Position numbers and translations under genes: made by a program
Notes under the pieces: generated by a model
Databases searched by the model: none
Seen by the model: the letters and a program-made list of their open reading frames with translations, nothing else
Told to the model about the DNA's origin: nothing
NCBI RefSeq assembly: GCF_006345805.1
Contig: NC_043006.1
Location: 104,780,001-104,844,000, forward strand
Direction: 5' to 3'
From: Octopus sinensis
Lineage: Eukaryota
DNA length: 64,000 bases
Shown here: positions 1-24,937 of the stretch, piece after piece
Position numbering within the stretch: position 1 is the first letter of the stretch
How the letters are laid out: the number at the start of each line of letters is the position of its first letter

Positions 1-1814
1 GAAAAACATTTTTAATGACAGATATAATCGTCAATAACCATATAATTTATCACTATAAGTACGTGTCTTTAAGAAAGCAGACAGAAATTTCTAAAAAAAT
101 TCCGTTATTACCATATCGGACCCGATTTCAGAGTTAATTCATAAGAATAAGAATAATTTATCATCAGTGATAAATGCGGCAAAGGAATAGATGAAATACT
201 TACTTATACCCATGGAAGAAGCAAACACGACGTCATGAGCAGAATTAAGTACCCCAAATATATCCAAAATAGAAATTCTCTAGCACACCTCGCGACAGGT
301 GCGATTCCAACTGAATTCAGTTCAAATCGCATCTGTCTCGAGGTTTGCTGCAACTCGAACCCAACGCCAACGGGACTTAAACATGAAAATTAGCTAATAC
401 TCCTTTTCAGCTGTCGCAGATCGTTCAAATGGAACATATTTCAACAGTTGCAGAGAGTTCAAACGGAACATTATAGACATCATTCTCCCTAGTCTTGAAG
501 TACTTGCAAGATTCACAAGCTCCGCCCCCTTCTCAAGAGCCTGTGAATAGAAACAGATATCGAGCACTCTAGTGTTTCTGTTACTTGGCCTTCTTTTGAC
601 ATGCATGATATTCTTAGATATGATATTATTAATGACCGTACTAATTCATGTAATTACAAATATTATAGTGTTGGTGTGGAGTGCAGAGACTTGGATTTGC
701 TAAAAGATCTCAGGGAGCAGGTAATTTTACAATTAATGAGGTACACATTTACTTTGCATTTTCTCTATTCAGTTTTGCTGATTTACATTCTTTGGTAATT
801 CTCGATCAAGGCAAGAATCCCCGACAAATTTCCAATTACTTCTTTCTCTGTCAAATGATGCATTTTGTCCGAGTAGAATATTCAGTCGTTTTTTATTCTA
901 TGTAACATATCGCTTACATTTCATTCGTTAAACTCCAGACATTGGAAAGTAAATATAACAGCAATGTTAGCTATGTACTCGCAGACACCATCCTCACATT
1001 TGGAAGTAACTGATATCGCCGTTATCACTCGAGGGTGCATCTGTAAATGTTCTGATTAACAAATTCAGCGCAGGCCTACTTTCGTTTCCATTATTCTGAG
1101 GTCAATAAAATAAGTACGGACTGATATAATCAGCTGTATATGCTTATGTGTACATACTATAGGCTATATTTCTGAATTGCATTACATATTCTAATAATTC
1201 CATTAAATACTCATAACTGTATTTTCCTAATTAGCACTCTCTTTCTGGTTTCGAGAAAGCCATCTATTCAAGATCGACGCTCTGGCAATTAGTTGCATAA
1301 CTAAGTTAACCAATAATCATCACGATAAATTAGGTGTAGTTTTTACCGATTTCTCATGGGGGGAAAATGAGGTTTTTTTTTCTAACTTTAACGTAATATT
1401 AATCACTATTGAACGACTAAATTCTACTACAGCACACATTAGTCTGCGTGCCAAAGTACACGTTCTGTTATAATTTGTCGCTATTTTACTTAGGTTTTGA
1501 TAGGGGCATTACTTCATTATTACTCTTAATGAGTGTGACCTGTACTGCACTGGAACTTGTATTTTGATCTTCAGAACTATACTAACTACGAATTACATTA
1601 TTCAATGCGTTGATAAATCATGCCACACTGAGAGATCTTATGATAATGTTATCTTAGTACAACTGTTTATGACTTGGGTTACAACGTCGTTTTCAACTGA
1701 CTTACAATATCGGCATCAGTGGGCACATCAAAATATTCTGCCTACATCTATTTTGCGTATCTGGTATTTTGTTAGTATTTCATATTCCTGGATTTCAAAA
1801 TCATTTTCCTCATA

Positions 1815-1960
1815 GTAAGCTTTAATAAAATGGCTGTTGGTGAACGCTCGATGAACGGAGAGTGTTCGACGTTTCGAGCATAGTCCTTCGTCGGAAAGGG
1901 AAAACGGAAAAGTCTAAACAAGGAAAATGAATTCCCAACAGCACGTGTATTGTTACATAG
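1815..1960 (-). mobile_element. Penelope-like terminal fragment with a degenerate CCGACGA-type HHR (1864-1897)
   Basis: Minus strand TTTCCGACGAAGGACTATGCTCGAAACGTC, same motif family as 5794-5828. Confidence 0.5.
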
Positions 1961-2017
1961 TAGGTATGTATGTGTGTGTGTGTGTGTGTGTAGTATATAT
2001 ATATATATATACATATA

Positions 2018-2404
2018 GGTGCAGGCATAACTATGCGATAATATGTTTGCTTCCCAATGACATGGTATGGAGTTCCGTCAGACAGCTTGGCTCATTGGGT
2101 ATGACTTATCTATTATAGCTTCGAAATGACCAAAGTCCTGTGAGCAGATTTGGACGTCGGAAACTTAACAAAGCCATCGTATATAATGTGTGTGTGTTTG
2201 AGTGTCTTTATATGTGTGTTTGTCCCCGACCATAGCTTGACAATTGATGTTGGTGTGTTTACGTATCTGTAACCGAGCGGTTCGGCAAAAAGGACCGATA
2301 CAATAAGTACGAGGCGTAAAAAGAGCACTGTGGTGGAGTTATTCGATTGCAAATTCCTCAAGGCTGTATCCCACTATGGCAGAAGTCTAATGAATGAGTG
2401 AAAC
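2018..2404 (+). mobile_element. tRNA-derived SINE family A (internal TG repeat)
   Basis: TTGCTTCCCAA..CATGGT head and GCTTGACAA..GGTGTGTTTACGT..GTAAC..AGCGGTTCGGCAAAA body, shared with other copies in the window. Confidence 0.75.
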
Positions 2405-2610: not shown

Positions 2611-3100
2611 AAATAGAAAAATTATTATTTCTAAATCTCTCAACTAGAGACATTCAGTAACAGCACATGAGTAAAGATTATTTTCCAACATAATATAGTA
2701 GTCCTGGTTAGGACGAGTGTTACTGTTATTTAGGCCCAGGAAACATCGCCTCCAGCTGGCTATACGACACACTTTCTGTGTCCTTATAGTTTCGAACGAG
2801 GAAGTTTAGCATCCACACTCAGTGCAAAGCAATATCTGCGTATCACGGTTTCTGGATTTTTTTCTCTTCGTCAGTACAGGATAACTGCTCGGTTAGACAT
2901 GGCGCTGCTAAACTCTTGTTCGAAATATATAATTTTCAAAGTGATACACTGTCACTGATCTAATAAATAGAAAAGTTATGATTTCTAAATCTCTCAACGA
3001 GAGACATTTAGTAACAGTACTCTAGAGTAAAGATTATTTGCCAACATAATGTGGGAGTGCTGCCTGGTTAGGATAAATGTTACTGCTATTTAGCCTCAGT
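2611..3100 (-). mobile_element. 354-nt period tandem (about 1.4 copies) with a degenerate HHR; related to 5209-5670
   Basis: AAATAGAAAA at 2611 and 2965. Minus strand CUGACGA..GAAACCGUGAUA at about 2829-2888. Shares the GGACACAGA.AGTGTGTC..GCCAGCTGGAGG..CCTGGG.CTAAA..ACAGTA module with 5556-5624. Confidence 0.7.
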
Positions 3101-5208: not shown

Positions 5209-5666
5209 AATGATAAATATCAAAGTGAGTTATATACAGTAGCGGTACACATCGTGACGTATTTTTGCCATTTCAATATGGCTAACCCCATATTTTGAAA
5301 TGGCAAAAATACGTCACGATGTGTTACCGCTACTGTATATAACTCACTTTGATATTTATCATTGTTTGATTTCACTTTTTCAATTTCAGCGACAGTGGAC
5401 GCTGGAAAAAGTATAAGTATTTGTGAAGGAAATCTAATTCTCGGCGACAACTATGATTGTAACACGCTGACGAGAGGTCAATACCTCGAAACTCGAGTCC
5501 GTGTGTATCATAAGTTGAAGACGGGAAGGATGACTTCCCTTTGCAAATACTGACAGGACACAGATAGTGTGTCTATGGCCAGCTGGAGGAGTGTGTCCTC
5601 CTGGGGCTAAAAACTACAGTAGCATCCACCCTTAGGGGTTAGCCATATTGAAATGTCAAAAATACG

Positions 5667-5670
<4 letters not shown>
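5209..5670 (+). mobile_element. 353-nt terminally redundant HHR unit with an inverted 5' copy (retrozyme/pLTR-like)
   Basis: GAAATG[G/T]CAAAAATACGTCAC at 5297 and 5650. Segment 5209-5289 is an inverted copy that spans the unit junction. (TA)n on both flanks. Confidence 0.8.
5452..5512 (+). ncRNA. Type I hammerhead ribozyme (intact)
   Basis: ACACG-CUGACGA-GAGGU(CAAU)ACCUC-GAAA-CUCGAG-UC-CGUGU, with helix I extended by UAUGAU/AUCAUA. GUC cleavage after 5499. Confidence 0.93.
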
Positions 5671-24575: not shown

Positions 24576-24621
<46 letters not shown>

Positions 24622-24937
24622 CAGAAGCAGACATTGCTTCGAAGCTTTTGACAAATATTACACGGAAAGCAAAGTGAAAGGAAATGTTAATTACTTAATT
24701 CTCGATAAAAAATTTAGCAAGTTACATAGGAGAGGTAAAATTTGTAAAGATAGGAAGAAAAAAACAGAGTTAACGAAATTATATTTGTTGCTGTAGGTAA
24801 AATTCTGTTGAGAATATAATATTTACGTGCATACCGACATATCTACCTGCCTGCTTATTTATCTAACAATCATTATTTGTTCTATTGATTTACTCGTATT
24901 TTTATGTGTATAGATATAGGTACATATATATATATAT

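Follow-up and report, generated by a model that had tools for sequence, protein, structure and literature searches.

A covarying RNA fold 3' of the hammerhead in noncoding tandem repeats of Octopus sinensis

Hammerhead repeats in the window

The window analyzed here, a stretch of 64,000 nucleotides from Octopus sinensis, contains at positions 5556–5624 of the plus strand a module that sits in an ORF-less, hammerhead-bearing tandem unit of 353–354 nt. The hammerhead (5461–5504) is of type I with a short palindromic stem III and is predicted to cut after 5499, the module beginning 58 nt 3' of this site. It matches the Rfam model RF00163 with 27.3 bits (E 9e-4) and sister copies match this model with 32.2 bits, a range of 27–32 bits that lies below the gathering score of 34. 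Core variants are present in other subfamilies, and the hammerhead cores of subfamilies C, C2, J, K1, and K2 start with U instead of C3, with the downstream fold intact. Extra hairpins are predicted 5' of the hammerhead (about 5383–5417) and between the hammerhead and the first hairpin of the module (5523–5539), at matching places in many subfamilies.

An earlier note on this DNA had reported the module in both ~354-nt units of the window and, in part, in a further minus-strand copy. The module is indeed present in both units, but these belong to 2 different subfamilies (82% alike over the module) and do not form one array. The subfamily of the plus-strand unit consists, across 30 loci, of ORF-less tandem units that are 97%–100% alike, and its insertions often comprise 2 back-to-back arms ending at 2 fixed places in (TA)n. 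In the window, the inverted, 5'-truncated arm of the plus-strand insertion (5209–5291, minus strand) stops at the second of these, end 2, in (TA)n. The minus-strand unit is a member of an older subfamily (B), the copies of which are 81%–86% alike; it carries a complete domain (2628–2791) and a decayed hammerhead core with an unpaired stem II (2841–2874). The partial minus-strand copy is 5'-truncated (from about 3095) and corresponds to an upstream B unit (2963–3098) that begins inside stem S1 and retains both arms of helix P3 (3079–3085 and about 3009–3016), both described below.

This is the insertion pattern described for Penelope-like elements in PMC8557442, and such hammerhead repeats have been proposed to be nonautonomous Penelope-like derivatives in bioRxiv 10.64898/2026.07.22.740005. 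The element combines ORF-less tandem units, an inverted truncated arm, a tail, and (TA)n targets, as retrozymes do. The host element is of a known kind, a noncoding hammerhead repeat with Penelope-type insertions in thousands of copies. A core pattern of the module had 2,712 matches in the genome versus 0 for the reversed control and none in a metagenome scan, and a pattern for the 3' side of the module had 6,988 matches versus 3 in the control. A weak covariance-model match at 24615–24720 on the plus strand (19 bits, rough E of 0.009) is perhaps an old fragment.

Sampling and alignment of subfamilies

Once an insertion is dead, its copies are free to mutate, so that only changes distinguishing one subfamily master from another were counted as informative. 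Subfamilies were collected by 3 module patterns, which fix parts of the motif, so that conservation within subfamilies A to J is partly built in; the distant K and M groups were found independently, by a profile search of the flanks and a hammerhead pattern, and then deepened. The 338 copies fell into 19 groups, 17 of which were used as alignment rows, K3 (one decayed copy) and O (4 mixed copies) being dropped. The K4 and M2 rows are single copies, one bulged base was removed from K2, and in D and J the register of P3 was adjusted manually; before this register correction, the 17 rows were 48%–91% alike (median 62%). A second set comprised 31 copies hand-picked from 162 full-length real copies and aligned by sequence alone, a pick that was not blind, as the rival helix P3 was already known when choosing. 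Event counts are parsimony counts on a tree built without the P3 columns and not R-scape values, and the region identities leave out the 3' arm of P3 and the tail, which are missing from 3 rows.

Structure of the fold

The earlier note drew the module as a hairpin followed by an H-type pseudoknot, in which the loop GCUG, closed by a stem U[G/A]GCC/GGCUA, pairs with CAGU across an A-rich linker, with a sequence-variable hairpin inserted. The parts lie where they had been placed: the hairpin, here termed P1, at 5557–5573 (plus strand) and 2766–2782 (minus strand), along with S1, the inserted hairpin, the A-rich linker, and the CAGU at 5617–5620 (plus) and 2722–2725 (minus). P1 has 6 bp and a loop of 3–7 nt, shows 2 independent two-sided changes, and is fully paired in 15 of the 17 subfamily rows (mean between-subfamily identity of 0.71). 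It is followed by P2 (5577–5608, identity 0.75), composed of the 4-bp stem S1 (5577–5580/5605–5608), an asymmetric internal loop (5581–5584/5602–5604), and an inner hairpin (5585–5601). S1 is paired in 15 of the 17 rows, and C, U-x-G, and GCU are invariant in the P2 loop across all of them. The support for S1 and for hairpin P5, with one two-sided event each, is weak, compared with 2 events for P1 and 5 for the inner stem. The closing stem of the earlier drawing thus stands as S1, whereas its outer U-A pair is not conserved and the minus-strand copy reads GGCCUA rather than GGCUA; the last G of the GCUG loop opens the inserted hairpin, with which it covaries. An alternative CCA/UGG pairing within P2 was ruled out, as S1 covaries and subfamily J breaks CCA/UGG.

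The GCUG/CAGU pairing can be written in both window copies, yet none of its 4 pairs shows a two-sided change among the 31 real copies (85.5% of cells pair; 3 J rows are misaligned), and no same-branch compensatory event occurs among the 17 rows, 9 of which are fully pairable (A, A2, B, B2, C, D, F, G, and H) and 8 broken (C2, I, J, K1, K2, K4, M1, and M2). The breaks are subfamily traits, pairable copies amounting to 0 of 14 in J, 0 of 51 in K1, and 1 of 43 in M1. RNAalifold, unprompted, instead pairs CAGU with a stretch about 55 nt downstream, forming helix P3. Among the 31 real copies, 6 of the 7 P3 pairs display two-sided changes and 96% of cells are paired; across the 17 rows, 10 same-branch compensatory events over the 7 pairs accompany 11 changes on the 5' side. 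Out of 7,710 seven-pair windows, P3 ranks at the top, equalled only by a slid copy of itself, the best unrelated (off-diagonal) window reaching 5.0. P3 is predicted in all 17 subfamily rows; K1 contains one true mismatch, and K4 was scored as broken through a one-base misalignment, though its P3 folds fully. Thus, compensatory changes show CAGU to pair, as far as comparative sequence can tell, with the partner downstream, and by the same evidence the module is the 5' half (P1 and P2) of a fold of roughly 155 nt kept by paired changes across many subfamilies. Accordingly, the interval 5556–5624 belongs to the motif, but its boundary had been drawn too short, by about 85 nt on the 3' side.

In the plus-strand unit, the 5' arm of P3, which includes the CAGU, lies at 5617–5623. 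The partner arm could not be seen there by the earlier reader because the insertion stops at 5670 and does not reach the 3' arm of P3, which is found in the preceding partial unit of the array (5329–5335). Within the P3 loop lie P4 (5628–5639; identity 0.43), a variable hairpin predicted in most subfamily rows and weak or absent in J, C2, and M2, and P5 (5642–5657; identity 0.76), a hairpin of the form GCCA-N8-UGGC that has an invariant UU in its loop and is paired in 16 of the 17 rows, with one pair broken in the copy at 5642–5657. The minus-strand B domain comprises, besides P1, P2 (2732–2761), P3 (2718–2725 with 2655–2662), P4 (2701–2714), a decayed P5, and a further hairpin, P7 (about 2631–2652); its fold has a z score of −2.2, P3 appears in both the minimum-energy and the centroid structures, and the copy is part of the training set of the covariance model. 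In a hammerhead-to-hammerhead monomer, the predicted pairing probabilities of P3, P1, and S1 are near 1, and in a sister copy, with a predicted monomer of 353 nt, the 3' arm of P3 pairs with a probability of 1.0 whether the RNA is taken as linear or as circular. In 3 of 7 copies, the antisense strand folds at least as well as the sense strand, so that folding energy alone cannot fix the strand.

It is very unlikely that the H-type pseudoknot forms as drawn, whether always or as an alternative when P3 is unavailable, for example in transcripts of terminal units or when a reverse transcriptase (RT) opens P3. The pairing GCUG/YAGY can be made in 71 of 72 copies of subfamily A as well as in the 9 rows listed above, 2 subfamily-level changes of the 3' arm retain it through G-U, and pairing this frequent is reached by only 54 of 9,216 four-pair windows. 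Against this stand the lack of two-sided events and the 8 broken rows, including the amplified J, K1, and M1, while each change of the 3' arm is matched by P3 and the fourth base of GCUG belongs to the inner stem. Shifted registers of 3–4 bp occur in some broken rows, none of them shared, and none exceeds 2 bp in M1, I, and K4; no pseudoknot was found among the top covarying windows. As a conserved element, the H-type pseudoknot is largely refuted by these comparisons, its second stem being without compensatory change, broken in 8 of 17 rows, and built of bases used by P3; both arms are conserved for reasons other than pairing with each other.

The broader proposal of a structured RNA has held up: the motif is conserved and covaries across subfamilies, and 3 scans with Rfam 15 (the window and 2 other loci; E up to 10) gave no match over the module, so that no described family model was hit. 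The alternative that it is part of a SINE found no support, as ARAGORN detected 0 tRNA genes in 7 of 7 loci and Rfam tRNA models no match in the scanned loci, with the proviso that decayed tRNA heads can escape both programs. We found no description of the fold in the openly readable literature searched, and published drawings of the anole element PAc, discussed below, could overlap with it. The structure is real and apparently undescribed, within a known kind of element.

The earlier note had offered a second catalytic element or a nuclease-blocking element as 2 of its 3 functional guesses. The small conserved internal loop with its invariant bases would suit another self-cleaving ribozyme or a fold that blocks exonucleases. 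Both readings lose their support with the H-type pseudoknot, which they require; the unit already has a hammerhead, whose 3' product would carry a 5'-OH, and the Rfam scans gave no match over the module, leaving hardly any probability for either.

Insertion ends and proposed function

The distance from P5 to the 3' arm of P3 is 22–23 nt in 15 of the 17 rows, and the remaining 2 agree after register correction. The length of this spacer is thus constant, although its sequence identity is only 0.45 and it contains no conserved structure; in the window, it starts at 5658 and runs up to insertion end 1 (5670), after which (TA)n follows. P3 closes the loop that holds P5 and the spacer in which end 1 falls. 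The ends of 321 copies from 15 subfamilies are clustered: 114 lie 10–20 nt after P5 (end 1; 114 of the 237 terminated copies), 99 lie at +52 to +82, 24 elsewhere, and 84 copies run on, counts on which it bears that the K1 and M1 searches favored long copies. End 1 was seen in all 15 subfamilies examined. The position of end 2, by contrast, depends on the lineage, being near +60 (+58 to +62) in A, C, and J and near +74 (+71 to +76) in B, G, K, and M. In young subfamilies, end 1 often falls at an AU within the spacer and mostly joins a TA run (26 of 30 in A, 5 of 5 in J, 6 of 7 in K1, and 5 of 7 in M1), less so in older subfamilies (0 of 8 in B2 and 1 of 6 in G). Several end-1 junctions in B and G enter (CT)n, matching the local spacer sequence, instead of (TA)n. 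A small hairpin at end 1 in B, D, G, and H is not conserved in the other rows and was rejected.

Upstream of end 1, P1 starts at a distance of 113 nt and P2 at 93 nt; on the downstream side, P3 closes after about 17 nt and P7 after about 45 nt. Conservation is highest in the unit at P1, P2, and P5 (identity of 0.71–0.76), compared with 0.57 in the hammerhead region and 0.43–0.49 in the linkers. Taken together, the comparisons of sequences and of related systems suggest that the fold probably recruits a borrowed Penelope-type RT and probably sets its start, as a binding and start-site scaffold. A Penelope-type RT would bind P1, P2, and P5 and nick AT-rich DNA; cDNA would be primed 12–18 nt past P5, inside the loop closed by P3, often at an AU that could pair with a (TA)n primer, and a second start would lie 40–60 nt further 3', past hairpin P7. 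With priming inside this loop, the "tail" between the 2 ends would carry the 3' arm of P3. This scheme equates the insertion ends with RT starts and assigns protein binding to the fold, both of which we infer; its weakest step is the role given to P1 and P2. RT binding, the remaining guess of the earlier note, is thus the best of its 3, even if the motif had been drawn with an unsupported pseudoknot.

P1 and P2 are not enclosed by the P3 loop, which speaks against the scaffold, and selection on any step in the life of the RNA would conserve them. The lineage-dependent position of end 2, a spacer free of conserved structure, and the outcome of the partner search described below weigh in the same direction. 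It is conceivable, albeit rather unlikely, that P3 to P5 mark the start and that P1 and P2 serve another step, as a folding aid or insulator for the hammerhead, in the formation of circles through a host ligase that recognizes them, or in RNA stability or transport. P1 and P2 fold independently of P3, and published descriptions indicate that animal retrozymes make circles, probably via tRNA ligase (PMC7229834), and that the anole hammerhead requires a protein to cut (PMC11167929). On the other hand, only 6–8 nt separate P2 from P3 in all 17 rows, and the anole template, according to PMC11167929, must include some 90 nt on the upstream side of the start, the distance of P2 here.

The conserved sequence of P2 has a further possible explanation. 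Conservation peaks at P2, the repeat must be transcribed, and the P2 sequence resembles a polymerase III A box, so that an internal promoter read as DNA might account for it. Such a promoter is highly improbable: both P2 stems covary, the A-box-like string is altered in C2, J, K, and M, no B-box-like word was seen downstream by eye, and there is no tRNA-like part.

Comparison with known systems

The closest parallel to the proposed scaffold is the anole Poseidon element PAc, with which we compared the fold by its published description, as far as PMC11167929 was available. In vitro, the RT of PAc starts at 2 internal sites, the first within a stem-loop; the genomic ends of PAc coincide with these sites, and activity requires the RNA from +20 to +172, with the starts at +111 to +118. 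The 2 insertion ends of the octopus repeats would correspond to 2 such sites, the first again in a stem-loop; the RNA needed by PAc (about 90 nt upstream and 55 nt downstream of the start) has a similar extent on both sides; and a hammerhead just upstream and AT-rich targets are common to both. The start element of PAc, by contrast, overlaps an ORF and is known from one sequence, without covariation, whereas here the RNA is noncoding and the start loop is multibranched, closed by a covarying long-range helix, and preceded by 2 extra hairpins. Activity has been established in vitro for PAc, and the present fold is known from sequence comparison.

The repeats also resemble the animal non-LTR retrozymes, as described in the accessible parts of PMC7229834 and bioRxiv 10.64898/2026.07.22.740005, in their type I hammerhead, ORF-less tandem units of ~350 nt, and thousands of copies. 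The hammerhead is the sole conserved structure described in those texts, to which the octopus repeats add a fold, and circular RNA has been demonstrated there, whereas the present units are known from DNA. Contigs that form one-unit loops were found in runs X1 and X2, which we guess to be RNA, though tandem DNA yields an identical contig. Subfamily A is nearly unchanged across 8 organism labels (runs X1 to X20), each containing 59%–73% of the words of the young unit.

SINEs borrow the RT of LINEs through 3' stem-loops, and the octopus repeat would likewise be a nonautonomous element that keeps an RNA structure recognized by a partner enzyme. SINE stem-loops lie at the RNA 3' end, whereas the present structure extends past the start on its 3' side, and terminal DNA copies lack this part.

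Penelope RTs are the closest retrotransposon relatives of telomerase, and the geometry of the fold recalls that of the telomerase RNA template core. As the core is described in the available text of PMC4993307, both place a template stretch within a large loop that a long-range helix closes, and both have a sequence-conserved hairpin 5' of the priming site; for the octopus fold, the location of the priming site in such a loop holds if the ends mark priming sites. Unlike in the telomerase core, the loop contains no pseudoknot and no short repeats are added, although early-branching telomerase RNAs also lack a pseudoknot in the core, according to the same text. Nor is P5 a template boundary: copies continue past P5 over at least one whole unit, so that P5 cannot be a synthesis stop. 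With neither a stop at P5 nor a pseudoknot, the fold does not qualify as a telomerase RNA template core.

It is nevertheless tempting to speculate, by analogy and with little confidence, that Penelope RTs engage RNA in a telomerase-like manner, with a protein-bound P5 located at a constant distance on the 5' side of a single-stranded window for priming in a helix-closed loop, and P1–P2 as a second bound domain outside this loop. If true, comparative structure would here provide its first view of a telomerase-like template core in the RNA of a retrotransposon, and the Penelope "tail" would owe its existence to the closing strand of the core, which lies within it. More generally, the fold bears on how Penelope-type enzymes choose an internal start, which one in vitro study puts in a stem-loop. 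It would offer a reason for the 30–60-nt tail and a cis-element by which retrozymes could borrow a partner enzyme, and its natural variation provides a full secondary structure, ready-made compensatory mutants, and bases to mutate.

Search for a partner element

Candidate partners were sought among GIY-YIG loci, through shared upstream and downstream flanks, and by tblastn of 2 Neptune-like proteins against the collected loci. No autonomous element carrying the fold was identified among 46 endonuclease-bearing or 247 module-bearing loci, and no homology to the terminal repeat of an autonomous element was detected in the loci compared, a small share of the elements in this genome. The neighbors L207, L238, L278, and L127 proved to be separate insertions. 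A covariance model run on 87 loci, including Neptune-like ends and other hammerhead families, matched this superfamily only; with no match in the other hammerhead families or the sampled Neptune ends, the fold is not a general feature of the Penelope elements of this genome, though more distant families may lie beyond these loci.

A single chimeric locus, L279, was encountered in this search (1320–2400, minus strand; G000:C1, near 9.22 Mb). A Neptune-like 3' UTR breaks there inside stem II of its own hammerhead and continues straight into a 5'-truncated retrozyme unit, with no remnant of the Neptune end thereafter, a junction produced by either a template switch or an insertion with deletion. 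We rejected L279 as a partner, since it is a single chimera and the UTR has its own kind of end in the 30 other best copies examined. In L075 (1350–2300, minus strand) and L250 (1250–2200, minus strand), which represent 2 subfamilies, related LINE 3' ends (75% alike) lie 10–30 nt 5' of the hammerhead, which fits a target-specific LINE. Finally, at L201 (6230–6300), L251, L254, and L290, an autonomous 2-ORF Neptune-like family and a separate ORF-less hammerhead family share, as judged by eye, a terminal motif; the 2 families are a candidate partner pair without the P1–P5 fold.
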